Positions 3,898 through 27,582 of a stretch of DNA of 32,000 bases are shown piece by piece. The stretch is from Thermodesulfobacteriota bacterium (lineage in GTDB: Bacteria > Desulfobacterota > WTBG01 > JAGOGO01), in assembly GCA_026625185.1 (NCBI GenBank), contig CP113000.1:1635622-1667621 (forward strand), given 5' to 3'. The notes beneath the pieces were generated by a model that made no database searches, was not told the DNA's origin, and saw only the letters and a program-made list of their open reading frames with translations. How positions within the stretch are numbered: the first letter of the stretch is position 1; every line of letters starts with the position of its first letter. The position numbers were made by a program, and so were the translations under genes.

Positions 3898-3923
3898 CGG
3901 TTCTGTCTTCCTTGAGTGTTGGT

Positions 3924-7444: not shown

Positions 7445-7457
7445 TTTCCTCCTCTTG

Positions 7458-12830: not shown

Positions 12831-12848
12831 TTGGCACGGATGTTGATA
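12831..12848 (+). promoter_or_regulatory. Sigma54 (-24/-12) promoter candidate for the MCE-ABC operon
   Basis: TTGGCACGGATGTTGATA compared with the consensus YTGGCACGrNNNTTGCW shows correct spacing. The only mismatch is the -12 C (TTGA for TTGC). It lies ~50 nt upstream of the ATG at 12899 and directly downstream of a sigma54 activator gene. Confidence 0.55.
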
Positions 12849-12898
12849 CTACTTAAAAAACTAAACAGAAAGCATTGAAAAATGAATCAGGAGAACTT

Positions 12899-14053: not shown

Positions 14054-14062
14054 AATAAACCA

Positions 14063-14101
14063 TTTAGATGCGGGATTCGTGATCCAGGATTCGGGATGCA
14101 A
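14063..14101. repeat. Left arm of the cassette: five tandem heptads phased on GAT
   Basis: The heptads GATGCGG, GATTCGT, GATCCAG, GATTCGG and GATGCAA have GAT at 14067, 14074, 14081, 14088 and 14095, an exact 7-nt period. Confidence 0.8.
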
Positions 14102-14116
14102 AGGGAAGGAGGGAAG

Positions 14117-14509
14117 ATGAGTTATACGAAGCTGGAAATTTGGCAATTGGCTCAGGATTTGTCAATTGAAATTCATAGAATGACGGTCGAGCTATTGCCA
14201 AAGTTCGAACGGTATGAAGAAGGGGCGCAGATTCGGCGTTCTATTAAATCAGTGCGTTCTAACATAGTGGAAGGATATGGACGACCACGATACAAACAGG
14301 AATTCATACGTTTTTTGACTTATGCCCATGCCTCCTGCGATGAGACGCTGGATCTCCTTAAAACTCTTTACCAACCAGGATCCTTGGCAGATGTTGAACT
14401 TTATCAAAAACTTTTTGAAAGGATTAATCTGTTAGGGCGGAAACTTTACTTCTTTATCAAGGGCGTTGATTTACAACACCAATCTGTCAGAGATGACAGG
14501 AAAAAATGA
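14117..14509 (+). CDS. Four-helix-bundle protein (23S rRNA intervening-sequence protein family, TIGR02436/PF05635-like)
   Basis: 130 aa from [23 protein letters not shown]..., with a GGAGGG SD. It carries family hallmarks: [39 protein letters not shown]. Confidence 0.85.
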
Positions 14510-14532
14510 GGCGCTGATGAAGAGAAGCAGAA

Positions 14533-14577
14533 TTTATCCCGTATCTCGTATCCTGTATCTTATATCGAGCATCTCCT
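14533..14577. repeat. Right arm of the cassette: six tandem heptads phased on ATC (inverted relative to the left arm)
   Basis: The heptads ATCCCGT, ATCTCGT, ATCCTGT, ATCTTAT, ATCGAGC and ATCTCCT have ATC at 14536, 14543, 14550, 14557, 14564 and 14571, an exact 7-nt period. Confidence 0.8.
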
Positions 14578-14600
14578 ATTTTAACTTAATGTAATGTATT

Positions 14601-15362
14601 ATGAATTGTTTGGTACCACACATAACCGTCAAAGACCTCACCATGGCTTACGGTGATTTTGTGCTCCAGCGGGACATGAACTTTGTCGTGAACCGGGGAG
14701 ATATATTTATTATTATGGGGGGGAGTGGATGCGGCAAGACCACCTTATTGCGTAACCTGGTGGGTTTAAAAGAACCCGCTCGCGGCCAGGTTTTTTATGG
14801 TGAGGTAAGTTTTTGGGAAAGCGATCAAGAAGAGCAGGGACGCATCATGCGGCAGTTTGGCATCCTGTACCAAAGCGGCGCGCTCTGGACTTCGATGACC
14901 CTGTCTGAAAACATAGCTCTTCCCTTGCGGGAGTATACTGATTTAAATGAGGCGGCGATTCGGGAAATCGCTTCCCTCAAACTTTCTCTGGTAGGGCTTA
15001 AAGGGTTTGAAGATTTTTATCCTTCCGAGATCAGCGGCGGCATGCGTAAACGTGCCGGCCTAGCGCGCGCCATGGCACTGGACCCGGAAATTCTTTTTTT
15101 TGATGAGCCCTCGGCCGGGCTTGATCCTATCAGCTCCCGGCTTTTGGATGACCTGATTCTCGAAATCCGGGAGAGCCTCGGGGCAACTATTGTCGTGGTT
15201 AGCCACGAACTGCCAAGTATTTTTGCCATTGGAAATAACTCTATCTATCTCGATGCAGAGGCTAAGACCATCATTGGCAGTGGGAATCCAAAAAAAATGC
15301 TTGAAGAGTCTCAGAATCCAATTGTTCGAGCGTTTCTGACGCGGGGGGAACAAAAAGTCTAA
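14601..15362 (+). CDS. MlaF-family ABC transporter ATP-binding protein
   Basis: 253 aa with Walker A GGSGCGKTT, signature ISGGMRKRAGLARA and Walker B ILFFDEPSAGLD. No clear SD precedes the ATG. Confidence 0.9.
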   Translation: MNCLVPHITVKDLTMAYGDFVLQRDMNFVVNRGDIFIIMGGSGCGKTTLLRNLVGLKEPARGQVFYGEVSFWESDQEEQGRIMRQFGILYQSGALWTSMTLSENIALPLREYTDLNEAAIREIASLKLSLVGLKGFEDFYPSEISGGMRKRAGLARAMALDPEILFFDEPSAGLDPISSRLLDDLILEIRESLGATIVVVSHELPSIFAIGNNSIYLDAEAKTIIGSGNPKKMLEESQNPIVRAFLTRGEQKV

Positions 15363-15478
15363 GAGTCGCAAAGTGAGTCGCAAGGTCGAAAGGTCTCAGA
15401 GTCCCAAAGTTGTAGAATTAGGTTTTTCCCCTTAGACCGTTAGACCCTTAAGACCATGTGACTCTTTGACCTTGACTG
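15363..15478. repeat. ORF-less imperfect palindrome built from octamer repeats (GTCnnAAG arm facing a CTTnnGAC arm)
   Basis: The left arm has GTC at 15365, 15377, 15385, 15393 and 15401 (GTCGCAAG, GTCGAAAG, GTCTCAGA, GTCCCAAA). The right arm has GAC at 15435, 15443, 15452, 15460, 15468 and 15474 (CTTAGAC, CGTTAGAC, CCTTAAGAC, CATGTGAC, TCTTTGAC, CTTGAC). A ~21-nt loop separates the arms. Confidence 0.7.
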
Positions 15479-15506
15479 AAGAAGAATAACATTAATGAGG
15501 TTAGGT

Positions 15507-16460
15507 ATGAGTAAAAAAGCGAGCAAAACCTTAATTGGGGCCTTTGTGGTTGGTGCCTTGGTGTTGGCGGTGATCGGGATTTTGCTTTTCGGGTCCGGTC
15601 AGTTTTTTTCCGAGAGTAAAACGTATGTGCTTTTTTTTAGGGGGTCGGTGAAAGGGCTCAATGTCGGCGCGCCGGTCAGTTTTCGTGGGGTCAAGGTTGG
15701 TCAGGTTACGGATATTAAAGCTCGCATTGATCCCCGTGACTATGCTCTGAGTATAGCAGTCTATATAAAAACTAACCCCGGTTGGCTTACGCCGGTCGCT
15801 GAAGAAAAAACCCTGGATATGATACTCTCAAGCTTTGAGCGGGGAAAAATTCTTCAAGATTTGGTGACTAAAAAAGGTCTCCGCGCCCAGCTTCAACTGC
15901 AAAGCCTGGTGACCGGATTGCTGGAAATCGAATTTGACTTTTATCCTGATACTCCGATTACCTTGCTGGGTACTGAACCAAATGTCTCTGAGCTTCCTAC
16001 CATTCCGTCAGATATGGAAAAGCTGCAGATGACACTCAGCAAATTTATTGCAAAGTTTGACAACCTTCCCATCGACGAATTTGTTAAGCGGCTCACGGAT
16101 ATCGCGGCAGGAGTTGATCGCCTGATAAATTCCCCTCAAACCGAAGAGAACGTCCGTTCTTTCAATGCGACCCTAAAGGGATTACAGAGGTTGGTTGGCA
16201 ATTTAAATAATCAGGTAAATCCGATGTCAACAAACATCCAGGAAAGTTTTAAGGCCGCCAAAGCGGCTCTTGAGCAAGCTCAAAAAACACTTGCCGCCGT
16301 TGAAGGTGTGACTGGAGATGCATCTTCATTGCGTTACCAAATGGGCGAAGCGCTCGAACAGATTTCTGATGCAGCACGTTCCCTTCGAGTGACGGCTGAG
16401 TATTTAGATCAACACCCTGAAGCGTTAATTCGCGGGAAAAAAGAATCAGGAGGAAAGTGA
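15507..16460 (+). CDS. Single-MCE-domain (MlaD/PqiB-like) periplasmic subunit with a long helical C-terminus
   Basis: Starts at MSKKASKTLIGAFVVGALVLAVIG (TM anchor), with a GAGG SD. It has an MCE core (GLNVGAPVSFRGVKVGQV). The C-terminus, RSLRVTAEYLDQHPEALIRGKK, is nearly identical in pattern to the PqiB C-terminus in this window. Confidence 0.85.
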   Translation: MSKKASKTLIGAFVVGALVLAVIGILLFGSGQFFSESKTYVLFFRGSVKGLNVGAPVSFRGVKVGQVTDIKARIDPRDYALSIAVYIKTNPGWLTPVAEEKTLDMILSSFERGKILQDLVTKKGLRAQLQLQSLVTGLLEIEFDFYPDTPITLLGTEPNVSELPTIPSDMEKLQMTLSKFIAKFDNLPIDEFVKRLTDIAAGVDRLINSPQTEENVRSFNATLKGLQRLVGNLNNQVNPMSTNIQESFKAAKAALEQAQKTLAAVEGVTGDASSLRYQMGEALEQISDAARSLRVTAEYLDQHPEALIRGKKESGGK

Positions 16461-16461
16461 T

Positions 16462-17088
16462 ATGGAGAAAAGATTTTGCTTTCCGGTAGGATGCATTATG
16501 TTAGGTGTTTGGGTTTTGCTCCTCAGTGGATGTGGCCACACGCAACCGTCCCGATTCTATCTTTTGCAATCCATACCGGGCATGGAGAAGGACAAGCACG
16601 CTGCTACCAACGGACAGAGCCTTACGATCTGTGTGGGTCCGGTCATGATCCCCAAATACCTTGATCGTCCTCAAATCGTAACCACGACAAAGACAAGCGA
16701 GCTTAAGCTGGCTGAGTTTGACCGGTGGGCAGAGCCATTCAAGGACAACTTTTCTCGTGTTCTGACGGAAAATCTCTCGGAGGCCTTGGAGACGGATCGG
16801 GTCGCTGTCTTTCCCCGGGAAAGCGCTGCATCTTCTGATTATCAGATAATAGTAACGGTTATCCGTTTTGATGGTGAGTCCGGGGGCAATGCGGTTTTAA
16901 GTGCCCGCTGGAGTATTTATGGAGAGGGTGGGAAGAAAGAACTTTTTTCGAAAAAATCGGATCTCAGCGAGCCAGCAGGGGTGCAAGGGTATGAAGCATT
17001 GGTGTCTGCCCAGAGCCGGATGATTGCGGGATTGAGCAAGGAAATCGCGGGAGCGATAAAAGCACTTGGGCAAGGCAAGACTCCTTAA
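16462..17088 (+). CDS. PqiC/DUF330-like ABC-transport auxiliary lipoprotein
   Basis: 208 aa with lipobox LLSGC. The conserved DRPQIV...FDRWAEP core is paralogous to the pqiC product at 5226-5822. A GGAGGAAAG SD precedes the start, which lies 1 nt after the MCE gene stop. Confidence 0.8.
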   Translation: MEKRFCFPVGCIMLGVWVLLLSGCGHTQPSRFYLLQSIPGMEKDKHAATNGQSLTICVGPVMIPKYLDRPQIVTTTKTSELKLAEFDRWAEPFKDNFSRVLTENLSEALETDRVAVFPRESAASSDYQIIVTVIRFDGESGGNAVLSARWSIYGEGGKKELFSKKSDLSEPAGVQGYEALVSAQSRMIAGLSKEIAGAIKALGQGKTP

Positions 17089-17692: not shown

Positions 17693-17864
17693 TTGTCTTA
17701 TTAAACTGCGATTAATATGAGGGTTCTCTTTCAAATGTCATTCCTACATAAGCAGAAATCCAGAACCAAACGAAGTTAAGAGACTCCCACCTTCGAGGGT
17801 GTGAGAGAATGGAAATTGATTAGAGGTACCAATGAATTAATGAATGAAAGGAAATGGTGATATT

Positions 17865-19592
17865 ATGCCCGATAAAATTTATCGTATTAATATGACCGAT
17901 TTGAAGGTTACGAATGAAGAAGTACCGGAACAATGGAAAGGGCTGGGGGGCAGGGGTTTGACTTCCACAATTGTGGCTCAGGAAGTAAAGCCCACCTGTC
18001 ATCCTTTGGGAAAGTACAATAAGCTGATAATTGCACCGGGGTTGCTAACCGGAACAGCGGCGGTCAACTCTGGGAGGCTTTCGGCTGGTGCTAAAAGTCC
18101 GCTGACCGGGACAATCAAAGAAAGTAATGCTGGTGGAACTGCTGCCCAGTTTTTTGCCCGATTGGGCATTAAGGCACTTATTATTGAAGGTCTGCCCCAG
18201 AAAGACACCTTTTACAGCCTTCATGTGGATAAGAGCGGAGTTACGATTCAGGAAGACACGGAATTCGCAGGCAAAGGGAATTATGAAGTAATGCAAATGG
18301 TTCAAAAAAAGTACGGAGAAAAGATTGGTATACTATCCATCGGACCGGCAGGGGAAATGCGGATGGCCGCAGCCAATATTTCGGTGAAGGATCCTGATGG
18401 AACTATTCGCAGCCTGGGGCGGGGAGGACTGGGGGCGGTCATGGGTTCAAAAAAGATAAAGTTCATTACCATTGATGATACGGATGGCCCCGGTGTCCAG
18501 ATTGCTGATCCGGAAAAATTCAAAACCGCTTCCCGCACGTTTGCCAAGGGGGTTATTGCCCATCCGGTGAGCGGCGAATCACTCAAGCTTTACGGCACCG
18601 ATGTGCTGGTAAACATCTTAAACGAAGCCGGCGGCCTGCCAACGGAAAATTTCCGCTATGGTCAATTCCCTGGTCATGAAAAAATAAGCGGTGAAACGGT
18701 ATATGAGACGATCCTGAGCCGGAAAGGCAACCCAAGCCATATCTGCCATCGGGGATGTGTCATCAGATGTTCTCAGGTTTACAATGATAAAAATGGCAAT
18801 TATGTTACTTCGGGCTTTGAATATGAAACGATCTGGGGCTTTGGCGCCAACTGCAATATAGATGACCTGGATATCATCGCGGAAGCTGATCATGTTATGG
18901 ACGATGTCGGGGTTGACTCAATAGAAACCGGGGTGGCGATGGGCGTTGCCATGGAAGCCGGGATCATTCCCTTTGGCGACGGGGCCGGAGTTCTGAGGTT
19001 GTTGAAAGAAATCGGCACTGGTACTCCCCTGGGCAGAATTCTCGGCTCCGGGGCTGAAGGAGTCGGGAAAACATATGGTATCACCAGAGTACCGGTGGTG
19101 AAGGGCCAGGGGCTTTCCGCCTATGACCCGCGATCAATAAAAGGTATGGGCATTACCTATGCGACGTCAACCATGGGCAGTGATCATACCGCCGGTTACT
19201 GTGTTCCGGTAAACATCCTGAACGTTGGGGGTTTTGTTGATCCTCTGAAAAAGGAAGGGCAGGTAGAGCTCTCAAGAAGGCTGCAGATAGGTACTGCATT
19301 ATTGGATAGCACTGGTCTTTGTCTCTTCGTTGCCTTTTCTGTCTTAGACAATCTGGACTTATTTCAAGCTATGATGGACATGATAAATGCCAAATATGGT
19401 CTCAGCATGACGATCGATAATGGAAGAGCACTGGGTAGAAAAATCCTTCGCACCGAGCATGAATTCAATTTGGCTGCAGGGTTCACCAACAAGGATGACC
19501 GGCTCCCGGAATTTTTCGAGGAACCGGTGCCCCCGCACAATGCGGTGTGGGATTTCACTGACGAAGAGATTGATTCATTCTGGAATTTCTGA
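17865..19592 (+). CDS. aor: Aldehyde:ferredoxin oxidoreductase family (tungsto/molybdo-pterin, [4Fe-4S]) enzyme
   Basis: ~575 aa from MPDKIYRINM. It aligns by eye along its whole length with P. furiosus AOR: GGRGL, KLIIAPGLLTG, KSPLTG, SIGPAGE, GRGGLGAVMGSKKIK, a cysteine cluster ICHRGCVIRC, EYETIWGFGANC, DSTGLCLF. Confidence 0.9.
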   Translation: MPDKIYRINMTDLKVTNEEVPEQWKGLGGRGLTSTIVAQEVKPTCHPLGKYNKLIIAPGLLTGTAAVNSGRLSAGAKSPLTGTIKESNAGGTAAQFFARLGIKALIIEGLPQKDTFYSLHVDKSGVTIQEDTEFAGKGNYEVMQMVQKKYGEKIGILSIGPAGEMRMAAANISVKDPDGTIRSLGRGGLGAVMGSKKIKFITIDDTDGPGVQIADPEKFKTASRTFAKGVIAHPVSGESLKLYGTDVLVNILNEAGGLPTENFRYGQFPGHEKISGETVYETILSRKGNPSHICHRGCVIRCSQVYNDKNGNYVTSGFEYETIWGFGANCNIDDLDIIAEADHVMDDVGVDSIETGVAMGVAMEAGIIPFGDGAGVLRLLKEIGTGTPLGRILGSGAEGVGKTYGITRVPVVKGQGLSAYDPRSIKGMGITYATSTMGSDHTAGYCVPVNILNVGGFVDPLKKEGQVELSRRLQIGTALLDSTGLCLFVAFSVLDNLDLFQAMMDMINAKYGLSMTIDNGRALGRKILRTEHEFNLAAGFTNKDDRLPEFFEEPVPPHNAVWDFTDEEIDSFWNF

Positions 19593-19632
19593 GAAACGTT
19601 TTGGCAGTTCAATTTTCGGAAACAGGTTATTC

Positions 19633-19851
19633 ATGAAGGTTAAATTATTTGCAGCATTCCGTGACGGAAGATTTAAAGAAAAAGAGTGGGGCTATTTTGA
19701 CGGTATTACCGTGGGATCTATTCTGGAAGCGCTCAATATTAATAAGAAGGAAGCGGGGGTATTATTAGTTAACTCCCGCCATGCAGAAACAAATTATAGA
19801 CTGGGAAAAGGGGATACCCTTTCTCTTTTTCCGGTCATCGGGGGTGGATAG
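19633..19851 (+). CDS. MoaD/ThiS-family beta-grasp sulfur-carrier-like protein ending in Gly-Gly
   Basis: This 72-aa ORF is hidden inside track ORF 19420..19851: MKVKLFAAFRDGRFKEKEWGYFDGITVGSILEALNINKKEAGVLLVNSRHAETNYRLGKGDTLSLFPVIGGG. Its size and the LFPVIGGG terminus are typical of the family. Confidence 0.7.
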   Translation: MKVKLFAAFRDGRFKEKEWGYFDGITVGSILEALNINKKEAGVLLVNSRHAETNYRLGKGDTLSLFPVIGGG

Positions 19852-19928: not shown

Positions 19929-22250
19929 ATGAAAAAAGGATTGTCAAAGATACTAATGCTTAGTGTTGTGTGTTTTGGGGTCTTCTACTTGTGCGCAAAC
20001 AGCTTTGCAATTACGATTAATGAGGTAAAACCAGGAGAAGATGTCTTCGCATATATCACCAGAGTCAAAAGGGGCTTTAATCAGACCCTTTATCAGCAGG
20101 TGATCGGTGCTTCCAATGCTTTCAAAGAAGGCGATGAAACTATTGGGGTGGCGGCCGATGATGAATCGACCCGGCAACATGCCCGGACGCTTTTGGCAAA
20201 CACGAAGATCAAAGACCTCTATGAGCACCCTCTCCTTGCCGACGACCTGCAGAAGCTGATCTGGCAAACCACCGATCAGGCCCAGTACAAGAAGGTTAAA
20301 GACTGGACCATGGGACAGCTGAAAGAATTTCTTTTAACCAAACCTGAGGCAGAGATCAAGGGCATCATGCATGGCTTGACCAGTGATGCGATTGGGTGTG
20401 TCCCCAAGCTGATGAGCAATGAAGAGTTAATCGCCATTGATCAAAAGATATTCAACCCCTTGCCGGGAACCAAGATGGGGGCAAAAGGGTACTTGAGTGC
20501 CCGCATACAGCCCAATTCGCCCACTGACAACCCCGATGATATTGTCTGGGAGGTGTTTGACGCGTTTTCCTATGCCACTGGCGATATCGTTATCGGAACC
20601 AACCCGGTGGACAGTCAGGTAGAGAGTGTAGCCACCGTGGAGAAAGCGCTCAAGGATGTGGTCGATACTTTCAAGCTTCAGGAGGTCGTTCCCTGGTGTG
20701 TGCTTTCCCATATCGATGTCCAGGCAGAGGTTAGTAAGAAGTATCCGGGAACGGTTGAGACCATGTTCCAGAGCCTCGCCGGAACAGATGATTGCAACAA
20801 GACCTTTGATGTCACGGTTGAGAAGATAATGAATTATGCAAAATCCAAGAAAGGAGAGAGATACGGGCTCTACTTTGAGACCGGTCAGGGCTCTGAATTT
20901 ACCAACGGCGCGGCCAAAGGGGCTGACATGATGGTGCTGGAATCCCGGAAGTACGGCTTTAGCCGGGCGGCACAGATGGAACTGGCTAAAGTCCAGCCTC
21001 AAGGGGCGTGGCTCCACGTCAATGATGTGGCCGGATTCATCGGGCCCGAGGTCTTCAGGACCCGCGAGCAACTTGTGAGATGCTGCCTGGAAGATATCGC
21101 CATGGGTAAACTCCACGGATTAACCATTGGTCTTGATATTTGTTCAACCCTGCACATGACCGTCAGCCTCGATGATCTCAATTGGTGCCAGGACCAGATC
21201 ATGCCGGCCAACCCTGCTTACTTGATGAGCCTGCCCACCAAGAATGACCCCATGTTGAGCTATCTGACCACGTCGTTTCAGGATCATGTCCGCCTGAGGG
21301 AAAAATTCGGCCTTAAAGTGAACGATCCCATGTGGGCTTTCTATAAGCTGATCGGGATTGTGGACAAGAACAACAAGTACACGAAGAATTTTGGCGATCC
21401 AATCTGGGTGTACTACCAGTACCGGCTGGCCAAGGGGGACAAGCGTTCCAAAGAAGCAATTTATGCTGAAGGAAAGAAGAAGATCAAGGAAGTTGAGGCG
21501 AGAGGCGTTGATCTGGCAATCGGTCACGGCAAGGATTTATGGGATCTCAATCCGCAACTGGCGGCCAAGGTAAAAACCTACTACGACGATGCCAAGATAT
21601 CCCTCTGGGCCGAGCTTACTCCTGCCTTTATCAAGACAATCCCCAATGCCCTGCAGGTCAGCACCCTGTCCAAGGATCGGGAGGACTATATCCTCCATCC
21701 GGCCAGCGGCGAGAAACTGAGCCCGGAATCCGTCTCTGCCCTTGAAAAGCTCAGGGACTCATGGGCAGGAATGGAGCCGAATGCGCAGATCGTGATTTCC
21801 GATGGCCTGAACGCCAAGGCCATTATGGATGATGGGCATCTTGCACCTTACCTGGAAGAAATCCGGATGCTGCTGACCAGTGCCGAAGCTGTTGGGAGCG
21901 GAAAGACCGCTATTGTGAGCGAAAAGAACATCGTCTTCACCAGCGGCAGGGTACGGGCCGGGTATGAGATCGGCTGCATGCTCTTTGGGAAATCAGATCC
22001 GAAAAAGCTGAAGGGGATTATTCACATCATCGGGGAGCGGCCGGGGACCATGCACCATTCCTATTCGGTGTATATCACCGTTGCCAAAGGAGAGGCATGG
22101 GCTCAAAAGAAGATTGATCACGATATTACGAAACTCGTATGCAACATAGCAGATACAGCCTTACCTCCGAAAGAAGCGGCCAAGGAGACCCTCACCATAA
22201 TAAGGGAAATGGTTGCGAAGCAGGCTCCTTCCAGCCGAAGCTCCCAGTGA
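19929..22250 (+). CDS. eutBC: Fused ethanolamine ammonia-lyase, EutB (heavy) plus EutC (light) in one 773-aa polypeptide, with a Sec-like N-terminal hydrophobic segment
   Basis: Residues ~45-505 align by eye with E. coli EutB (GVAADDES..AR..LANTKIKDL; GDIVIGTNPVD; LYFETGQGSEF; VNDVAGFIGPEV; LEDIAMGKLHGLTIGLD). Residues ~545-765 align with EutC (QIVISDGLNAKAI; GRVRAGYEIG; IIGERPGT; LVCNIADTALPPKEAA). The N-terminus is MKKGLSKILMLSVVCFGVFYLCANSFA. A GAGGAA SD precedes the start. Confidence 0.9.
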   Translation: MKKGLSKILMLSVVCFGVFYLCANSFAITINEVKPGEDVFAYITRVKRGFNQTLYQQVIGASNAFKEGDETIGVAADDESTRQHARTLLANTKIKDLYEHPLLADDLQKLIWQTTDQAQYKKVKDWTMGQLKEFLLTKPEAEIKGIMHGLTSDAIGCVPKLMSNEELIAIDQKIFNPLPGTKMGAKGYLSARIQPNSPTDNPDDIVWEVFDAFSYATGDIVIGTNPVDSQVESVATVEKALKDVVDTFKLQEVVPWCVLSHIDVQAEVSKKYPGTVETMFQSLAGTDDCNKTFDVTVEKIMNYAKSKKGERYGLYFETGQGSEFTNGAAKGADMMVLESRKYGFSRAAQMELAKVQPQGAWLHVNDVAGFIGPEVFRTREQLVRCCLEDIAMGKLHGLTIGLDICSTLHMTVSLDDLNWCQDQIMPANPAYLMSLPTKNDPMLSYLTTSFQDHVRLREKFGLKVNDPMWAFYKLIGIVDKNNKYTKNFGDPIWVYYQYRLAKGDKRSKEAIYAEGKKKIKEVEARGVDLAIGHGKDLWDLNPQLAAKVKTYYDDAKISLWAELTPAFIKTIPNALQVSTLSKDREDYILHPASGEKLSPESVSALEKLRDSWAGMEPNAQIVISDGLNAKAIMDDGHLAPYLEEIRMLLTSAEAVGSGKTAIVSEKNIVFTSGRVRAGYEIGCMLFGKSDPKKLKGIIHIIGERPGTMHHSYSVYITVAKGEAWAQKKIDHDITKLVCNIADTALPPKEAAKETLTIIREMVAKQAPSSRSSQ

Positions 22251-22366: not shown

Positions 22367-24262
22367 GTGAATGTTTTAATTTTTCTGATAGTGTTTCCGC
22401 TGGTTATCTCAGTGTTGGCGTTAGCACTCCCGCGTGGTCTTCTTATCAAAAGGATTATTGGGGTGATCGCCAATGTAGTTCTGTGTGCGGTACCAATCTA
22501 TCTTCTGGTCACGTATCTTGATAAGGGTCCTGCCTATTTCCACCTTGAGAGCCATCTGATCAATAATTCCATGCTTGTGGTGGAAATTCTCATCGCAGCC
22601 TATATAATTTATATTTCCATCCGGGCAAAAAGATACCTTCCCGTGCTGCTTGTTTTTCTACAATCAGTGATTATGCTTAGTTTCGAGTTTACCTCCGGTA
22701 GGGGGATGCAGATTGAGCACAGCCTGTTCGTGGATAAGTTCTCCATCATCATGGCTTTGATCGTGGGTTGTATCGGAAGCGCCATCTGTCTTTACGCAAT
22801 CGGATATATCCCGGAATATCACGAACACTACAAGGAGGTGAAAGCAAGGCCCAGGTATTTCTTTTTCCTCATGTACCTCTTCCTGTCCGCCATGTTTGGC
22901 ATCGTTTTCTCCAATAACCTCATGTGGATCTATTTCTTCTGGGAAATTACCACGCTCTGTTCATTTTTGCTGATCGGCTATAAAAACGACCAGGCATCCC
23001 AGGAGAGCGCATTCAGAGCACTCATCATGAATCTACTGGGAGGAGTTGTTTTCGCGGTCGGCCTTGTCTACCTGTACCATTCCTCCCAAGTCATGGAATT
23101 AAATAAATTGATTCAGCTCGATAAGGGCTACGTATTAATTCCGGCCGTGTGCATTGCCTTTGCCGGCCTGGTAAAATCAGCCCAATTCCCGTTTTCCTCC
23201 TGGCTGACGGGCGCCATGGTGGCACCGACACCAGTGTCAGCGTTGCTGCATTCGAGCACGATGGTAAAAGCGGGGGTCTATATCATCCTGAGAGTGGCCC
23301 CGGTGTTAGAGAACACTGTAGCAGCAAAAATGCTCATGCTCATCGGCGGGGTCAGTTTTCTGATTACCGCTTTCATTGCCATTTCTCAGAGCAATGCCAA
23401 AAAGGTGCTCGCCTACTCGACCATTTCCAACCTTGGGTTGATCGTCGCCTGTGCAGGAATTAATACCTATTCGGCAGTATGGGCAGCGATTCTGCTGATT
23501 ATTTTTCATGCGGTAGCAAAGTCGCTCCTCTTTCTCTGTGTGGGGATTATCGAGTACAAGCTTGGCAGCCGTGATATAGAGGATATGGACTATCTGATCA
23601 TGCGAATGCCCAAGCTCACCGCAATCATGATGACCGGCATGGCCGGGATGTTTCTTGCTCCTTTTGGCATGATCATAGGCAAGCTCGCCACGCTGAAAGC
23701 ATTTGTCGATTCCAATCCGGGGATGGCAATAATTTTAGCCTATGGAAGCGGGGCCACGGTCTTTTTCTGGATTAAATGGATGGGCAAAATTATTTCCATT
23801 AAACATGGCGTCTTTAAGGTCATGGAAGACCGGGTCAGCCGCTGGGAATGGATTACCCTGGGCATATTGGCCATTTCGACGGTGGCGGCATGCATTGGGT
23901 TTCCTCTCATCGCATTCCGCCTGGTGGACCCCTTTATCCTGGAGGTCTTTGGAAAAACCGTTATCGTTGATCCATTTAGTGTCTATATGATTCTCCTCAT
24001 GATGGTTGGCCTGTTAATCCTTCTTCCCCTTGGTCTTTTTTTCTTTGGATTCGTCAATAAAGGATATAAGAGGGTCGGAACCTATCTTGGCGGCGCCAAT
24101 ATTGACGATGTCACTTTTGAAGGGGCCATGGAATCTTCCCAGACAATTGAGCTCAAGAATTACTATCTGGAAAAATTCTTTGGAGAAAACGTTTTATTCA
24201 ATGCCGGGGTTTTTATTTCGTTAATATTGTTGGTCATCATGTTTGGAGTTGCAATCATATGA
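22367..24262 (+). CDS. echA: Ech hydrogenase subunit A (antiporter-like, NuoL/M/N-related membrane subunit)
   Basis: 631 aa, polytopic, with a GTG start and AGAGGA SD. It carries the antiporter-like pattern WEITTLCSFLLIGY, SAQFPFSSWL..AMVAPTPVSALLHSSTMVKAGVY. Confidence 0.85.
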   Translation: MNVLIFLIVFPLVISVLALALPRGLLIKRIIGVIANVVLCAVPIYLLVTYLDKGPAYFHLESHLINNSMLVVEILIAAYIIYISIRAKRYLPVLLVFLQSVIMLSFEFTSGRGMQIEHSLFVDKFSIIMALIVGCIGSAICLYAIGYIPEYHEHYKEVKARPRYFFFLMYLFLSAMFGIVFSNNLMWIYFFWEITTLCSFLLIGYKNDQASQESAFRALIMNLLGGVVFAVGLVYLYHSSQVMELNKLIQLDKGYVLIPAVCIAFAGLVKSAQFPFSSWLTGAMVAPTPVSALLHSSTMVKAGVYIILRVAPVLENTVAAKMLMLIGGVSFLITAFIAISQSNAKKVLAYSTISNLGLIVACAGINTYSAVWAAILLIIFHAVAKSLLFLCVGIIEYKLGSRDIEDMDYLIMRMPKLTAIMMTGMAGMFLAPFGMIIGKLATLKAFVDSNPGMAIILAYGSGATVFFWIKWMGKIISIKHGVFKVMEDRVSRWEWITLGILAISTVAACIGFPLIAFRLVDPFILEVFGKTVIVDPFSVYMILLMMVGLLILLPLGLFFFGFVNKGYKRVGTYLGGANIDDVTFEGAMESSQTIELKNYYLEKFFGENVLFNAGVFISLILLVIMFGVAII

Positions 24263-25140
24263 ACAGTATTTCTGAGATCATCCAATCCTGGAGTATCATT
24301 GAAAGGATGCTGGCCTTTTTCCTGCTTGCGCCCATTGCGGGTGGCGTACTGGCCGGTATTGACCGGAAATTGAGCGCACGGTTGCAGGGCAGATATGGCC
24401 CCCCGGTGAGGCAGCCTTTTTTTGATGTTCTAAAACTTTTCCAAAAAGAGCGGATCCTCGTTAACAAATTTCAGAACTTTCCGATAGTGCTCTTTTTTCT
24501 GTTTACGGTTTTTTCCGGCGCTCTTTTCTTTTCCGGTGCGAGTATCCTTTTGGCAATCTTCAGTTTAGCCCTGGCCGGAACTTTTTTTATCCTGGGTGGA
24601 TTTTCGGTCAGTTCCCCGTATAGCCACCTTGGCGCTGAGCGCGAATTGATTCAGATGATGTCATACGAACCCATGGTCATTCTTGTGGCGGTCGGCATGT
24701 ACCAGGTGACGGGAAGCTTTACGGTTGCGGACATTGTCCAACACCAGGCGTCGCTGATTCTTTACCTTCCCGGGGTGTTCGCGGGCTTTGTTTATATCCT
24801 CACCATTAAGTTCCGAAAATCTCCTTTTGACCTTTCCATGTCTCATCATGCGCACCAGGAACTGGTGAGGGGGATCACTACCGAATTTTCCGGTCCTGCC
24901 CTGGGCCTCATAGAGATTACTCATTGGTATGAAAATGTGCTTCTCTTGGGCATGGTATACCTCTTTTTTGCCTTTAATCCCTGGCTGGCCATCGTTGCGT
25001 CACTGGGAACGTATTTGTTTGAAATTATTATTGATATGAATTATGCCCGATTTAAGTGGCAGCTTACGTTCTGGAGTTCATGGTTGTTTACGGCTGTGGC
25101 CGGGGTTTCAAATATTATTGTGCTTTGTTTTTTGAAATGA
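24259..25140 (+). CDS. echB: Ech hydrogenase subunit B (NuoH-like membrane subunit)
   Basis: 293 aa. The start overlaps the echA stop (ATGA). It shows the NuoH/HycD-like pattern R.L.ARLQGRYGPP..QPF.D..KL..KE. Confidence 0.85.
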   Translation: MNSISEIIQSWSIIERMLAFFLLAPIAGGVLAGIDRKLSARLQGRYGPPVRQPFFDVLKLFQKERILVNKFQNFPIVLFFLFTVFSGALFFSGASILLAIFSLALAGTFFILGGFSVSSPYSHLGAERELIQMMSYEPMVILVAVGMYQVTGSFTVADIVQHQASLILYLPGVFAGFVYILTIKFRKSPFDLSMSHHAHQELVRGITTEFSGPALGLIEITHWYENVLLLGMVYLFFAFNPWLAIVASLGTYLFEIIIDMNYARFKWQLTFWSSWLFTAVAGVSNIIVLCFLK

Positions 25141-25158
25141 CTTGGGAGAACAAAAAAC

Positions 25159-25644
25159 ATGGGTTGGTTTAAAAAATCGCCGTGGCTTCTTCATTATAAC
25201 GCGACCAGCTGTAACGGGTGCGATATTGAGATTATTGCCTGCCTGACCCCTTTGTACGATCTGGAGCGGTTTGGTATTATCAACACCGGAAACCCAAAAC
25301 ACGCTGACATCCTGGCGGTCACCGGGTCGGTCAATGAGAAGAGCAAGCAGATTCTGAAAAATCTTTATGATCAAATGCCGAATCCCAAGGTAGTCGTGGC
25401 GGTAGGCCTTTGCGCCATTTCCGGATGCGTTTTTCAGGACTGCTACAATGTGCTGGGAGGAGCCGACAAGGTGTTGCCGGTAGATGTGTATGTTCCGGGA
25501 TGTTCTGCGCGGCCGGAATCGATTATCGACGGAGTACTTCAGGCGTGTGAGATTCTTGAAGAGAAATACGCCCAGCAGAAAAAAGCAAAGCAATCATCAC
25601 CAAAATCACAAACAAATCAACGGCAAGGTTTTAACCATGAGTGA
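25159..25644 (+). CDS. echC: Ech hydrogenase small subunit (NuoB-like, proximal [4Fe-4S])
   Basis: 161 aa. Cysteine ligands are in the canonical context: SCNGCDIE, GLCAISG, PGCSARPE. Confidence 0.9.
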   Translation: MGWFKKSPWLLHYNATSCNGCDIEIIACLTPLYDLERFGIINTGNPKHADILAVTGSVNEKSKQILKNLYDQMPNPKVVVAVGLCAISGCVFQDCYNVLGGADKVLPVDVYVPGCSARPESIIDGVLQACEILEEKYAQQKKAKQSSPKSQTNQRQGFNHE

Positions 25645-26083
25645 ACCGCAGGAAATCATTCTTATCGAAAAAAATAATTTACTGGGAATTGTGTCTGACC
25701 TCTTTGCAGAGGGCTACCGACTTGTGCAGATCGGCTGCACCACACTCCAGAGCGCCTATGAACTTAACTATTCTTTTGATAAAGAGTACCATTTTAAAAA
25801 TCTGCGGTTTACCGTGGCACCGGAAGAAGAGATCCAAAGCATCAGCGTTATCTATCCAAATGCCTTTCTGTATGAAAATGAAATTCATGACCTTTTTGGC
25901 CTTACCATCAAAAACATAACCATTGACTACCAGGGGAAGCTTTACCGAACTGCCCTTAAGGTTCCTTTTAGCATTGAGAATTGTCCGGTGCCCGAGCCCC
26001 CAAAACCAAAGAAAGAAACTCCTCCAGAACCGCCGGAAAGCCAAAAACAAAATTCGGCAGACACTAAACCGCAAGAGGATTAA
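25637..26083 (+). CDS. echD: Ech hydrogenase subunit D (NuoC/30-kDa-like) with a Pro/Lys-rich C-terminal tail
   Basis: 148 aa from MSEPQEIILIEKNN. The start overlaps the echC stop by 8 nt. It has the NuoC-like motif IYPNAFLYENEIHDLFGL. The track's longer ORF (from 25484) is an out-of-frame overlap with echC. Confidence 0.75.
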   Translation: MSEPQEIILIEKNNLLGIVSDLFAEGYRLVQIGCTTLQSAYELNYSFDKEYHFKNLRFTVAPEEEIQSISVIYPNAFLYENEIHDLFGLTIKNITIDYQGKLYRTALKVPFSIENCPVPEPPKPKKETPPEPPESQKQNSADTKPQED

Positions 26084-26097
26084 AGGAGTAAACGTCT

Positions 26098-27177
26098 ATG
26101 GCGCATAAGAATATCATCCCTTTTGGTCCCCAACATCCCGTACTTCCGGAACCGATCCATTTTGATCTCGTAACTGAAGATGAAAAGATTGTTGATGCTA
26201 TCCCTTCGATAAGTTACGTCCACCGCGGGCTGGAACGACTTGTAGAAAAAAGAGATTTTATTGATTTCGTGCATATTGCCGACCGGATTTGCGGCCTGTG
26301 CAGCTTTATGCACTGTATGGGATATTGCCAGGCAGTGGAAGAGGTTATGGGTATCCAGGTGCCGGAACGTGCTCTGTACCTCAGATCCATATGGGCGGAG
26401 CTGGCGCGGATACATAGTCATATCTTCTGGCTCGGTGTTTCTGCCGACGCTTTTGGTTATGAAAGCCTTTTTATGCAATCCTTGCGTCTCCGGGAATTGG
26501 TGCTTGATATCATTGAAGAAACCACCGGCGGAAGGGTCATCTTTGGCTCCTGCAAGGTGGGTGGGGTGAGGAGAGACATCGATAGCGAAACTTTAAAGGG
26601 GCTTGTTGCTAGGTTGACAAATATGAAAGCCGATTTGGATGAACTCACTTCCGTCTTTATTAATGATTATTCCATTCAGCACCGATTGGTGGGGGTAGGA
26701 TTTTTTTCCAAAGAAGATGCCTATACTCTTGGGTGTGTTGGCCCCATGGCCCGGGCGAGCGGTTTCGCTCTTGACATGCGAACTCTTGGGTATGCTGCCT
26801 ATAAGTTCCTGGAGATAGAACCGGTCGTGGAATACGGGGGAGACTGTTATGCCCGATGCCTCGTGCGAATTCGGGAAATTTTCCAATCCATGGATTTAAT
26901 CCGTCAGGCAGCCGGAAAAATTTCCGAAGGGCCTATTGATGTCAAGGTGAAGGGCACGCCGAATGGCGAGTATTTTTCCCGGGTCGAACAGCCTCGGGGT
27001 GAAGTGATTCATTACGTCAAAGGGAATGGTTCAAAATTTCTCCAGCGGTTCCGGGTGAGAGTCCCAACATTCACCAATATCCCAGGGATGATCAAAGTAT
27101 TGAAAGGTTCTCAGGTGGCTGATGTCCCGAATATTATTTTGACCTTGGATCCGTGTATCAGCTGCACAGAAAGGTAA
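26098..27177 (+). CDS. echE: Ech [NiFe] hydrogenase large subunit (NuoD-like)
   Basis: 359 aa with an AGGAG SD. Both Ni-Fe ligand pairs are present: N-terminal RICGLCSFMH and C-terminal DPCISCTER. The protein ends right after the second motif, as in Ech/Mbh-type enzymes. Confidence 0.9.
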   Translation: MAHKNIIPFGPQHPVLPEPIHFDLVTEDEKIVDAIPSISYVHRGLERLVEKRDFIDFVHIADRICGLCSFMHCMGYCQAVEEVMGIQVPERALYLRSIWAELARIHSHIFWLGVSADAFGYESLFMQSLRLRELVLDIIEETTGGRVIFGSCKVGGVRRDIDSETLKGLVARLTNMKADLDELTSVFINDYSIQHRLVGVGFFSKEDAYTLGCVGPMARASGFALDMRTLGYAAYKFLEIEPVVEYGGDCYARCLVRIREIFQSMDLIRQAAGKISEGPIDVKVKGTPNGEYFSRVEQPRGEVIHYVKGNGSKFLQRFRVRVPTFTNIPGMIKVLKGSQVADVPNIILTLDPCISCTER

Positions 27178-27189
27178 GGCAATAAGAAC

Positions 27190-27582
27190 ATGAGATCGTT
27201 TACTATGACAAAAACGGTGGTCAAGAACCTGGTCAAGGGACCCGCAACCCTCATGTACCCGAAAAAAAAGAGGTTTTTTACTAAGATTACCAGGGGAAGC
27301 GTAGAAATTGATATCCAGAAATGCATTTTCTGCGGGATATGCAGCAAACGGTGTCCAACCTACGCCATTGTTGTCACCAAAGTCACCAAAGAATGCAAAG
27401 AATGGGAGATCGACCGCCTCAAATGCTGCGCCTGCAATCTTTGTGTTGAAGTCTGTCCGAAAAAGTGTCTCTCGATGACCAACCAGTATACCCCGCCAGC
27501 AAGAGATAGAACGGCAGGGATCCATAAACAAATTTTCACCGGCCCTGAAATCCTTACGGGAAAGGAAGAGGAGCATTCCTAA
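27190..27582 (+). CDS. echF: Ech hydrogenase subunit F (NuoI-like 2x[4Fe-4S] ferredoxin-type subunit)
   Basis: 130 aa with two cluster motifs, CIFCGICSKRCP and CCACNLCVEVCP. The start could instead be the ATG at 27205. Confidence 0.85.
   Translation: MRSFTMTKTVVKNLVKGPATLMYPKKKRFFTKITRGSVEIDIQKCIFCGICSKRCPTYAIVVTKVTKECKEWEIDRLKCCACNLCVEVCPKKCLSMTNQYTPPARDRTAGIHKQIFTGPEILTGKEEEHS

Follow-up and report, generated by a model that had tools for sequence, protein, structure and literature searches.

A single-chain ethanolamine ammonia-lyase with a predicted export signal, encoded between an aldehyde:ferredoxin oxidoreductase and an Ech-type hydrogenase

We analyzed a stretch of 32,000 nucleotides from a Thermodesulfobacteriota bacterium (hereafter, the window) and found a gene in which eutB and eutC are fused behind a putative signal peptide. 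It is probable that the fused ethanolamine ammonia-lyase (EAL) is exported by the Sec route and works in the periplasm, and that acetaldehyde passes from it to a cytoplasmic aldehyde:ferredoxin oxidoreductase (AOR), then to ferredoxin and to an Ech hydrogenase. Judged by sequence, fused EutBC proteins form a large cross-phylum family; in a sample of 239 members, an export signal immediately precedes the EutB domain in about three quarters, and most of these signals are of the classic Tat type. A minority, to which the window protein and the Pelobacter-family enzymes belong, show more hydrophobic Sec-type signals that have no RR. The EutBC fusion is already known from Pelobacter carbinolicus (Aklujkar et al., 2012, PMC3543383); the predicted export signals found throughout the family are the new result presented here.

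The fused gene and its neighbours

The preliminary description of this DNA had read eutBC as one 773-aa open reading frame with EutB-like and EutC-like regions joined by a Lys-rich linker, its start supported by a Shine-Dalgarno sequence (GAGGAA), and all these features were found again (Table 1). The EutB region was recognized both by Pfam (PF06751, aa 55-486, E = 2e-147, 491.9 bits against a cutoff of 25) and by NCBIfam (NF011649, aa 43-503, 649 bits against a cutoff of 554), and the EutC region by Pfam (PF05985, aa 536-766, E = 2e-29, 103.3 bits against a cutoff of 25.8). The EutC domain is divergent, since it scored 73 bits with the NCBIfam EutC equivalog, whose cutoff is 230. In a phmmer comparison with the PDB, the EutB part matched 2qez_A (E = 2e-68) and 3abo_A (E = 3e-62), the identity to characterised EutB being only about 30%. 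An AlphaFold2 model of the fusion protein (pTM 0.81), submitted to Foldseek, gave target TM scores of 0.86 to 3abo_A (EutB) and of 0.68-0.74 to 3abo_B/D (EutC); its active-site loops are of low confidence. The match to the PDB sequence of E. coli EutC begins only at residue ~106-117 of the latter. The joining segment (about aa 503-535, ...GDKRSKEAIYAEGKKKIKEVEARG...) is rich in Lys, and its residues 508-524 are modelled as a confident helix.

Table 1. Features of the window around eutBC
Feature	Position	Strand	Basis and remarks
AOR, no signal peptide	17844..19592	+	Pfam AFOR_N and AFOR_C; N-terminus MKGNGDIMPDKIYRINM
ThiS/MoaD-like small protein, 72 aa	19633..19851	+	Pfam ThiS; gene call in L022 at 9705-9923, corresponding to these window positions
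Shine-Dalgarno-like GAGGAA	19920..19925	+	3 nt 5' of the eutBC ATG; read from the sequence
eutBC fusion gene	19929..22250	+	773 aa including signal peptide, ATG start; ORF list, Pfam, NCBIfam
Sec-type signal peptide (predicted), aa 1-27 (MKKGLSKILMLSVVCFGVFYLCANSFA)	19929..20009	+	Predicted cleavage after SFA; inspection, hydrophobicity, pLDDT, homologues
EutB-like catalytic TIM-barrel domain, aa 43-503	20055..21437	+	NCBIfam NF011649, phmmer, Foldseek
Lys-rich helical linker, aa 504-535	21438..21533	+	Replaces the N-terminal encapsulation region of free-standing EutC
EutC-like domain, aa 536-766	21534..22226	+	Pfam PF05985, Foldseek
Six-subunit Ech-type membrane-bound [NiFe]-hydrogenase (EchA-F)	22367..27582	+	Pfam families and NiFe motifs
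Ferredoxin, 64 aa	27690..27884	+	Translation; Pfam matches to Fer4_13/Fer4_15 for this gene in L022-L024 and L028

Residues R192, Q194, N225, E317 and D403 match R160, Q162, N193, E287 and D362 of E. coli EutB, which we take, from the papers on the 3ABO structure, to be its substrate-binding residues. All five are invariant in an alignment of 60 homologues, and the cofactor-region motifs GFIGPE, ISDGL and GERPG are retained in the window protein. Sequence and model thus point to a single-chain EAL (EutB-EutC), presumably dependent on AdoCbl. Classical EAL has two separate subunits that assemble as alpha6-beta6, whereas here the fusion is one continuous frame, and all 239 relatives listed are fused as well. 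The same protein, with identical sequence and the same called start, occurs on independent metagenome contigs (three inspected).

The small ThiS/MoaD-like protein encoded between AOR and eutBC, whose gene was also found in the related loci L003 and L018, is probably a pterin-cofactor maturation factor for AOR. The Ech genes gave matches to Proton_antipo_M, NADHdh, Oxidored_q6, Complex1_30kDa, Complex1_49kDa/NiFeSe_Hases and Fer4; six homologues of NuoL/H/B/C/D/I together with the CxxC motifs identify an Ech-type group 4 [NiFe]-hydrogenase, and EchE contains the NiFe-binding motifs RICGLC (63-68) and DPCISC (351-356). The 64-aa ferredoxin is likely the electron carrier between AOR and Ech; the presence of its gene after Ech is established for the window contigs and L028 only. 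AOR, ferredoxin and the soluble Ech subunits have no signal peptide and face the cytoplasm.

AOR adjoins eutBC in seven related loci (L001, L002, L003, L011, L017, L018 and L028), and the linkage of AOR, eutBC and Ech recurs, in rearranged order, in six to seven (L002, L003, L011, L017, L018 and L028, plus L001). Outside this lineage the contexts are mixed and comprise glycolysis and acetate genes, RND efflux and glycoside hydrolases; because many relatives' gene sits in such unrelated contexts, the AOR-Ech pathway is lineage-specific and not a property of the whole fused EutBC family. No permease, EutA or BMC shell gene was found in the window or in the inspected related loci, and no BMC, EutA, EutT or EutH families were present among the window genes or the Pfam calls for this same locus, small genes included. 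The locus differs from a microcompartment-associated Eut system in having no shell genes and no EutA, and in that a linker stands where EutC would have its N-terminal region. Rfam gave nothing in the window, and in six related loci a tRNA was its sole match; no cobalamin riboswitch was seen in any of them. Searches for sigma-54 promoters and scans for sigma-70 promoters and terminators returned nothing above chance near eutBC. Lipid-transport (Mla/Pqi) genes lie near eutBC in the window.

Predicted export signals in the window protein and its relatives

The N-terminus is as the preliminary description had quoted it, with a positive n-region, a hydrophobic core, SFA and no twin-arginine motif. 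By inspection it consists of an n-region MKKGLSK (positive at K2, K3 and K7), an h-region ILMLSVVCFGVFYLCA of about 16 residues and NSFA followed by I, with S-F-A at positions -3 to -1 and no RR; the predicted cleavage junction falls between MKKGLSKILMLSVVCFGVFYLCANSFA and ITI. The maximal 12-residue Kyte-Doolittle hydrophobicity (2.79) is typical of Sec-like signals and exceeds the mean for the Tat type (2.03), and residues 1-24, with pLDDT below 50, lie outside the fold of the AlphaFold2 model. This anatomy (positive n-region, h-region, small residues at -3 and -1) is that of a Sec-type signal cleaved by signal peptidase I. The protein does not look like a Tat substrate, having KK for RR and too hydrophobic an h-region, and TIGR01409 gave no Tat match on its N-terminus. 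A lipoprotein reading of the signal was rejected, as FYLC is not a lipobox.

Since the n-region is positive and the flank C-terminal of the hydrophobic core is acidic, an N-in/C-out orientation is predicted, so that the enzyme would lie on the periplasmic side even if the segment were an anchor that is not cleaved. The earlier suggestion that the enzyme is tethered to the membrane beside Ech thus finds no support in the form in which it was meant, because the enzyme would be periplasmic, whereas the soluble Ech subunits, AOR and ferredoxin face the cytoplasm. The other option that had been considered, export, received strong support from the homologues, which carry Tat signals, Tat signals with a lipobox-like Cys, or Sec-type signals at the same place.

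The family was sampled as the 120 closest cluster representatives (set 1) and 119 more distant fused EutBCs (set 2). With signal classes assigned by our own rules and by short curated HMMs giving only marginal scores, set 1 contained 84 RR-type Tat signals, 23-24 Sec-like signals, about eight start-truncated signals and only three truly signal-less proteins, and set 2 contained 76 RR-type Tat signals, nine RK/KR/RN variants and seven Sec-like signals. A lipobox-like Cys follows the Tat signal in five members of set 1 and in 24-25 of set 2. The N-terminal feature that had been noted in the window protein is thus beyond chance: 23-24 close homologues are Sec-like and 84 more have a Tat signal at the same position. 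The signal bearers of set 2 come from Myxococcota, Planctomycetota, Aminicenantes, Bacteroidota and Syntrophotaleaceae. Examples of the Tat motif in homologues are MKRRDFLKLCAAG, SRRKFLAMMGAAG and TRRDLLLMAGATA, and different phyla share the RRxFL motif in the same frame. Tat N-termini were confirmed by genome ORFs in Thermodesulfovibrionales, Syntrophorhabdus, Geobacteraceae, Desulfobacteraceae, Bradyrhizobium, Sinorhizobium, Microvirga and Planctomycetaceae; the copy on the Sinorhizobium meliloti megaplasmid carries a Tat signal according to our reading of the ORF in a record without annotation.

Pfam TAT_signal gave only weak matches, in 12 of 60 full-length proteins, after which isolated N-termini were rescanned with NCBIfam. 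TIGR01409 then scored 17.6 and 19.8 bits (cutoff 16.7) on two of them and 14.3-14.6 on two more, and was silent on the N-terminus of the Syntrophotaleaceae protein. Mean values of the h-region maximum are 2.03 for Tat signals and 2.64 for Sec-like ones, in agreement with the known higher hydrophobicity of Sec signals. In a neighbour-joining tree, which is rough and may include some chimeric metagenomic proteins, Sec-like signals occur in at least four to five clades nested among Tat-bearing ones. The mature part of the L001 protein is 86% identical to the window protein, yet its signal is of the Tat type. The small -3/-1 site is S-F-A here and C-G-A or S-E-A in close relatives, and its place, 6-10 residues ahead of the point where the folded domain starts, is conserved. 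Canonical unfused EutB proteins, taken as a control, have no such N-terminal extension. The truly signal-less members are P0027/30/31, Myxococcota paralogues beginning MTQPQR... and the eukaryotic P0127; Hyalangium rubrum has both Tat-bearing and signal-less copies (P0311, P0352).

Homologues beginning downstream and devoid of the segment, which would have counted against the early reading, were looked for; instead the signals stand at the same position, and the shorter database homologues visibly lack part of a signal that nearly identical sequences have in full. Because the kind of signal changes from member to member while the mature enzyme is conserved and its five substrate-binding residues are invariant, the family pattern argues for an extracytoplasmic location; it speaks against a wrongly called start and against tethering beside Ech on the cytoplasmic side.

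Proposed pathway and alternative readings

In the scheme that we propose, the eutBC product would leave the cytoplasm by means of a cleavable Sec-type signal peptide and act in the periplasm, converting ethanolamine into acetaldehyde and NH4+. Acetaldehyde would diffuse back over the inner membrane and be oxidised to acetate by the cytoplasmic tungsten/molybdopterin AOR encoded just upstream, while Ech, encoded just downstream, would re-oxidise reduced ferredoxin with formation of H2 and ion pumping. With the lyase outside, an ethanolamine permease would not be needed, nor would the cell import a cation whose nitrogen exits again as NH3, a saving that would matter in a pathway with Ech as the only energy-conserving step. 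The aldehyde-forming step would be kept from the cytoplasm, the periplasm doing the job of the Eut microcompartment, and the fusion would allow one signal peptide to export both subunits in a 1:1 ratio.

The cofactor weighs against this scheme. Sec export needs an unfolded chain, so the window protein, if exported, would have to fold and be loaded with AdoCbl in the periplasm, for which we know of no precedent. To our knowledge, every AdoCbl-dependent eliminase characterised so far resides in the cytoplasm or in a microcompartment, where reactivases that consume ATP maintain its activity, and ATP is absent from the periplasm. No reactivase gene was found near eutBC, which counts against export, and periplasmic acetaldehyde might escape across the outer membrane ahead of its capture by AOR. 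Cofactor loading had been raised from the start as an objection to export: it loses its force for most of the family, since Tat exports folded and possibly loaded proteins, and keeps it for the Sec-type window protein. Our wider proposal is correspondingly tentative, and we hold it with somewhat less than even confidence. According to it, an AdoCbl radical enzyme would be periplasmic in many phyla without an ATP-dependent reactivase, the lineages in which Sec has replaced Tat signals, this one and the Pelobacter family among them, would fold the enzyme and load AdoCbl after export by a periplasmic B12 route, perhaps with imported corrinoid, and the periplasm would replace the microcompartment as the aldehyde compartment.

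Among the alternatives, an uncleaved signal anchor, which would keep the exported enzyme attached to the inner membrane on its outer face, is unlikely but fares best. For a signal peptide, the hydrophobic core is long, no helix-breaking Pro or Gly precedes the SFA site, and the predicted tethering of relatives by a lipobox-like Cys suggests that a membrane-proximal location recurs in the family. However, 16 residues are short for a stable transmembrane helix, and the spacing of the conserved small -3/-1 site from the fold is the geometry of a cleaved signal.

We regard as quite improbable that the enzyme is cytoplasmic and that its N-terminal peptide is vestigial, binds a chaperone or provides a peripheral attachment to the cytoplasmic face near Ech. 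AdoCbl supply and ATP-dependent repair are cytoplasmic, as are AOR, ferredoxin and Ech; remnant Tat leaders on cytoplasmic enzymes are established, as in the chaperone binding of NarG; and the signal-less minority suggests that the catalytic core can work without export. Nevertheless, a vestigial leader would not repeatedly give way to a complete export signal of another kind, as seen in the more hydrophobic Sec-type signals and in those with a lipobox-like Cys; AxA-type sites persist, the charges on either side of the core predict an N-in/C-out orientation, and the two kinds of copies in H. rubrum look like two compartments rather than decay.

Just as improbable is an exported enzyme that is not an ethanolamine lyase in vivo and acts on 1-amino-2-propanol or a head-group-derived amine, or under a different cofactor regime. 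The low EutC equivalog score, the distance from characterised EutB, the poorly modelled active-site loops and the nearby lipid-transport genes would fit such a role, and the authors of the P. carbinolicus study wondered whether its two paralogues differ in substrate (PMC3543383). Against it stand the invariance of the five ethanolamine-binding residues, the retention of the three cofactor-region motifs, the fact that Mla genes are not kept beside eutBC in other loci, and an aldehyde-oxidising partner that fits acetaldehyde.

A mis-called start, with an ordinary soluble fused EAL beginning for instance at GTG58, is hardly credible: the claim that no in-frame start exists before about aa 128 holds for ATG downstream of the hydrophobic core and fails for other codons (TTG5, ATG10, GTG14, TTG21, GTG58, GTG74 and TTG89), and several database homologues were called with shorter N-termini, but these starts are immaterial because residues 28-57, which align with the N-terminus of crystallised EutB, are conserved across phyla and homologues also have the upstream signal peptide, the short entries are truncated copies, a good Shine-Dalgarno sequence precedes ATG1 and RRxFL is kept in frame.

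Searching the literature for EAL or eutBC together with Tat, periplasm, signal peptide or Ech, we found no published description of an exported EAL; a review of eut from 2018 is silent on both fusion and export, and a paper on alpha-proteobacterial Tat does not mention ethanolamine. Ethanolamine catabolism is the textbook case of a microcompartment whose shell holds volatile, toxic acetaldehyde and keeps AdoCbl recycling near. If our reading of the export signals is correct, an extracytoplasmic EAL family spanning Thermodesulfobacteriota, Nitrospirota, Myxococcota, Planctomycetota and Bacteroidota, and including rhizobia, would represent a second solution to the acetaldehyde problem and would add an ATP-free compartment to those in which AdoCbl radical chemistry is known. 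Sec-type members would raise the testable question of periplasmic B12 cofactor loading, and the succession of periplasmic EAL, AOR, ferredoxin and Ech would account in a simple way for energy conservation when ethanolamine is used syntrophically or by fermentation. Genome-based predictions of ethanolamine use would also change, as carriers would have none of the usual permease, EutA and shell markers. Genetically tractable carriers such as S. meliloti make the export idea directly testable.

Comparison with known systems

The window protein resembles EutBC of E. coli, Salmonella and Listeria (3ABO, 2QEZ) in both domains, in fold and in the R/Q/N/E/D residues, and presumably shares their chemistry, the AdoCbl-dependent conversion of ethanolamine into acetaldehyde and NH3. 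It differs from the E. coli-type enzyme in being a single chain, in its predicted export signal and in the Lys-rich helix that takes the place of the EutC encapsulation region; nor are a BMC shell, EutA, EutT, an EutH/Eat permease or EutE encoded nearby, in contrast to the E. coli-type eut genes. The short eut loci of Proteobacteria and Actinobacteria (eutBC and the eat permease) also have no microcompartment and often no EutA, but they encode separate cytoplasmic subunits and an adjacent permease, whereas the window combines an export signal with the absence of a permease.

That EAL consists of two separate subunits in the cytoplasm or the BMC lumen, as the preliminary description had stated, is true of the characterised enzymes and not of P. 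carbinolicus (Syntrophotalea carbinolica), whose eutBC1 and eutBC2 (Pcar_0491 and Pcar_0467) are fusions that were called unusual (Aklujkar et al., 2012, PMC3543383). This organism ferments ethanolamine, has no eutA in its genome and has an AOR gene in the eut cluster; uptake was assumed to occur via neighbouring binding and membrane proteins, and a signal peptide was not mentioned (PMC3543383). Its cluster contains cobalamin synthesis and transport genes and no Ech, unlike the window. The Syntrophotaleaceae homologue P0340 has the layout described for P. carbinolicus and a Sec-like signal (MRKRSRILIVAVAGLAGIFLAGIAGA, followed by VTV), the link between Pelobacter and a Sec signal being made through this family-level MAG homologue. 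A periplasmic CbiK beside the Syntrophotaleaceae gene was considered and rejected, as CbiK has no signal peptide.

The nearest mechanistic parallel lies outside the EAL family. Reductive dehalogenases (RdhA/PceA) are loaded with corrinoid in the cytoplasm, exported in folded form by Tat and work on the outer face of the membrane. They have no homology to fused EutBC and use Co(I) and Fe-S clusters, not an adenosyl radical, and we know of no Sec-type variants among them. Their precedent makes the Tat-type members of the fused EutBC family mechanistically plausible.

Identity of the fused EutBC chain

Sequence, Pfam and NCBIfam analyses confirmed the preliminary description of a single 773-aa reading frame, preceded by the sequence GAGGAA, in which EutB and EutC are joined by a Lys-rich linker. 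The Pfam EutB domain covers aa 55-486 (E = 2e-147) and the EutC domain aa 536-766 (E = 2e-29). The NCBIfam EutB model matched aa 43-503 with 649 bits (cutoff 554); the EutC equivalog scored 73 bits, below its cutoff of 230 bits, and therefore the small-subunit part of the protein is divergent. A sequence search of the PDB retrieved the EutB of Listeria and of E. coli (E = 2e-68 and 3e-62) and the EutC of E. coli (E of about 5e-5). It was also held that no alternative start precedes aa 128. This is correct for ATG codons located past the hydrophobic core, but other starts exist, with in-frame TTG, ATG and GTG codons at codons 5, 10, 14, 21, 58, 74 and 89; the question is moot because the N-termini of the homologues are conserved.

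The AlphaFold2 model, calculated with 60 homologues as input, had a pTM of 0.81 and matched chain A of 3ABO with a target TM of 0.86 and the EutC chains with values of 0.68-0.74. The Lys-rich segment joining the two domains (about aa 503-535) is a confident helix, and residues 1-24 lie outside the fold with pLDDT below 50. R192, Q194, N225, E317 and D403 align with E. coli R160, Q162, N193, E287 and D362, which we take, from the papers on 3ABO, to be the substrate-binding residues of EutB; the five positions are invariant in the 60-sequence alignment. As modelled, the chain corresponds to a single alpha-beta protomer of ethanolamine ammonia-lyase (EAL) carrying an extra, detached N-terminal peptide.

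Location of eutBC, of its neighbours and of other features in the window and in related eutBC loci (L numbers)
Feature	Position	Strand	Remarks
eutBC fusion ORF	19929-22250	+	773 aa, ATG start
Shine-Dalgarno-like GAGGAA	19920-19925	+	3 bases ahead of ATG
sigma-54 activator, PAS/sigma-54 type	window		before Mla-type ABC system
Mla-type ABC system	window		between sigma-54 activator and AOR
AOR	17844-19592		ahead of ThiS/MoaD-like gene
ThiS/MoaD-like gene, 72 aa	19633-19851		between AOR and eutBC
EchABCDEF	22367-27582		after eutBC; NiFe motifs RICGLC, DPCISC
ferredoxin, 64 aa	27690-27884		after Ech
Mla/Pqi-type cluster	5226-8750	-	PqiA, triple-MlaD, auxiliary lipoprotein
Mla/Pqi-type cluster	12875-17088	+	MlaE, ABC, MlaD, auxiliary lipoprotein
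sigma-54 site TGGCACGGATGTTGA	12832-12846		near-consensus, immediately 5' of MlaE
PF05635 gene	14096-14509		between permease and ATPase genes
SBP_bac_3 and/or CitMHS/ArsB-type genes	window 2548-4982	-	
SBP_bac_3 and/or CitMHS/ArsB-type genes	L021 21138-22355; L027 14658-17007; L020 2862-3761; L030 10595-12400		
Gcw_chp-family gene	L026 10623-11459; L029 7950-8702		adjoins eutBC

Export signals in the fused family

The N-terminus of the window protein is exactly as first quoted, with its SFA site and without a twin-arginine motif. It contains K2, K3 and K7, a hydrophobic core of about 16 residues, S-F-A at positions -3 to -1 and an acidic flank after the site; no RR pair was seen on inspection of this region. 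With a positive n-region and an acidic flank, an N-in/C-out insertion is predicted, and the catalytic domain would be on the periplasmic side whether the signal is cleaved or uncleaved. The earlier idea of a tether beside the Ech-type [NiFe]-hydrogenase (Ech) consequently fails in its intended sense, since the aldehyde:ferredoxin oxidoreductase (AOR), the ferredoxin and the soluble Ech subunits, whose sequences carry no signals, face the cytoplasm. A fair rival is that the segment is an uncleaved anchor, in which case the enzyme would be exported but held at the membrane. Cleavage is favoured by the length of the core (16 residues) and by the conservation of a small -3/-1 site placed 6-10 residues ahead of the fold.

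The closest cluster representatives (75-100% identity) are all fused (120/120), and in the alignment of homologues that had been proposed as a check their N-termini are not shorter and the export signals fall at the same place. When signals were classified by our own rules as RR-Tat, Sec-like, truncated or none, a twin-arginine signal followed by an A-x-A-type site was found in 84/120 (for example MKRRDFLKLCAAGVIIPSVVP...AQ and ...SRRKFLAMMGAAGVTLAAY...ASA) and a Sec-like signal, as in the window protein, in 23-24; about 8 are start-truncated copies of signals present in near-identical proteins, and the signal is truly absent in only 3. A second set of 119 much more distant fused proteins, drawn from Myxococcota, Planctomycetota, Aminicenantes, Bacteroidota and Syntrophotaleaceae, agreed with the first; it contained 76 RR-Tat signals (24 with a lipobox-like Cys), 9 RK/KR/RN variants and 7 Sec-like signals, with roughly 15 proteins truly devoid of a signal. 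Tat leaders are encoded in genomic ORFs of Thermodesulfovibrionales, Syntrophorhabdus, Geobacteraceae, Desulfobacteraceae, Bradyrhizobium, Sinorhizobium, Microvirga and Planctomycetaceae; the leader of Sinorhizobium meliloti is of the Tat type (MSKRLF...TRRDLLLMAGATATLASYSHAAKSA), the megaplasmid copy starting MSKRLFSRQRDGLTRRDLLLMAGATATLASYSHAAKSA, and an SRK variant that closes with a lipobox-like Cys occurs in Aquiflexum (Bacteroidota). On isolated N-termini, the TIGR01409 Tat model was above cutoff in two cases and near cutoff in two more, and gave no match on the window protein or the Syntrophotaleaceae protein. The N-terminal extension is absent from the canonical unfused EutB proteins that we compared.

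The maximal 12-residue hydrophobicity averages 2.03 in Tat-type and 2.64 in Sec-like signals (2.79 in the window protein), a difference between the classes that runs in the expected direction. In a rough neighbour-joining tree of the mature domains, Sec-like signals occur in at least 4-5 clades nested among Tat-bearing sequences. In fact, the Thermodesulfovibrionales locus L001 encodes a protein whose mature part shares 86% identity with the window protein and which has the same AOR neighbour, but its signal is MDRRDFLKLCAAG... The signal type has thus been swapped repeatedly and recently with the enzyme unchanged, as would be expected were selection acting on location outside the cytoplasm. 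Such repeated exchange on a conserved enzyme would scarcely be expected if the leader were vestigial, the start mis-called or the enzyme tethered on the cytoplasmic side. The signals of the homologues support the export option of the preliminary description, extend it to a cross-phylum family and argue strongly, by comparison, for export of the window protein. That this protein acts outside the cytoplasm and feeds AOR and Ech seems to us fairly probable.

Some members of the family depart from this pattern. P0027, P0030 and P0031, which share about 84% identity with the window protein, start with MSDQRLKRETMSIEEATISIEVKL and have no hydrophobic stretch, which looks like recent signal loss within a signal-bearing clade. 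Hyalangium rubrum has two fused EutBC paralogues (P0311 and P0352), of which one combines a Tat signal with a lipobox-like Cys and the other is signal-less, with a Pro/Ser-rich N-terminus (MTQPQR...); other Myxococcota are in the same sample set. This pair suggests separate periplasmic and cytoplasmic isoenzymes. The fusion was found in eukaryotes too (Andalucia godoyi ANDGO_00096, 774 aa, no signal) and in long multi-domain proteins of 1110-1246 aa, all among P0127, P0122, P0147 and P0254; the nearest bacterial kin of the eukaryotic protein are signal-bearing fused enzymes.

Gene context, proposed pathway and cofactor loading

No genes for EutA, EutT, EutH/Eat, EutE or shell proteins were found in the window. 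The linkage of AOR, eutBC and Ech recurs in rearranged order, with Tat or Sec signals, at L001, L002, L003, L011, L017, L018 and L028; confirmation of the ferredoxin gene was limited to the window contigs and L028, and in other lineages eutBC stands alone, in unrelated contexts. A 143-aa ORF at 19420-19851 was discarded as an artefact, being a long upstream extension of the ThiS/MoaD-like gene that overlaps the end of AOR. On the long-read MAG contigs L011, L017 and L018, eutBC, AOR and Ech are frameshifted (frames end early and tblastn matches are split), more likely through sequencing errors than as pseudogenes.

Judging from the gene context, ethanolamine would be converted to acetaldehyde and NH4+ in the periplasm, and acetaldehyde would diffuse inward to the cytoplasm. 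There AOR would oxidise it to acetate with reduction of ferredoxin, which Ech would re-oxidise, producing H2 and pumping ions. Since the AOR route is without substrate-level phosphorylation, Ech would be the sole coupling site, and therefore skipping the electrogenic uptake of protonated ethanolamine would be a real saving, as we infer from established thermodynamics. The release of ethanolamine by glycerophosphodiester phosphodiesterase in the periplasm itself (2018 review, PMC5821096) fits a periplasmic EAL.

Other genes were observed near eutBC. At two unrelated loci (L026 and L029) it adjoins a gene for a Gcw_chp-family protein (PF09694, weak match) with its own signal peptide, probably an outer-membrane beta-barrel and perhaps a porin admitting small amines or ammonium; in P. 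carbinolicus a paralogue of its counterpart adjoins an ammonium transporter (PMC3543383). An SBP_bac_3 binding protein and a CitMHS/ArsB-type transporter are encoded less than about 15 kb from eutBC in the window and in two Syntrophobacteraceae-like loci, and the transporter occurs without its SBP_bac_3 partner in two further loci. The 32-kb window holds two Mla/Pqi-type lipid-transport clusters with the PAS/sigma-54 activator between them, and a PF05635 gene ('23S rRNA intervening sequence protein') lies within the MlaE-ABC-MlaD-lipoprotein operon.

Cofactor loading had been regarded as an obstacle to export. For Tat-type members the problem is largely gone, because proteins pass through Tat already folded, and the reductive dehalogenases are corrinoid enzymes exported by this route. 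The objection holds for the Sec-type window protein, which would cross the membrane unfolded and so would have to bind AdoCbl in the periplasm. This is conceivable, and is the main weakness of the export reading; EAL holds AdoCbl without a covalent bond, and in Gram-negative bacteria corrinoids reach the periplasm ahead of inner-membrane transport.

Comparison with Pelobacter carbinolicus

The EutB-EutC fusion is not new: eutBC1/2 of P. carbinolicus were termed 'an unusual fusion' in a study that noted the lack of eutA and an AOR gene within the cluster, assumed uptake and made no mention of a signal peptide (Aklujkar et al., 2012; PMC3543383). Neither the window locus nor P. carbinolicus has an ATP-dependent reactivase, and the latter ferments ethanolamine all the same (PMC3543383). 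No literature on exported, periplasmic or Tat-dependent EAL was found in a targeted search of a collection that covers few subscription journals. At the Syntrophotaleaceae locus (P0340), eutBC lies between genes for an outer-membrane-type protein and a binding lipoprotein on one side and those for CbiK, a corrinoid-type ABC transporter and MoxR/VWA proteins on the other. This layout matches the published description of the P. carbinolicus cluster (PMC3543383), and the fused EutBC of the Syntrophotaleaceae locus has a Sec-like signal. What the family presents is a previously undescribed pairing of a known enzyme with known export routes.
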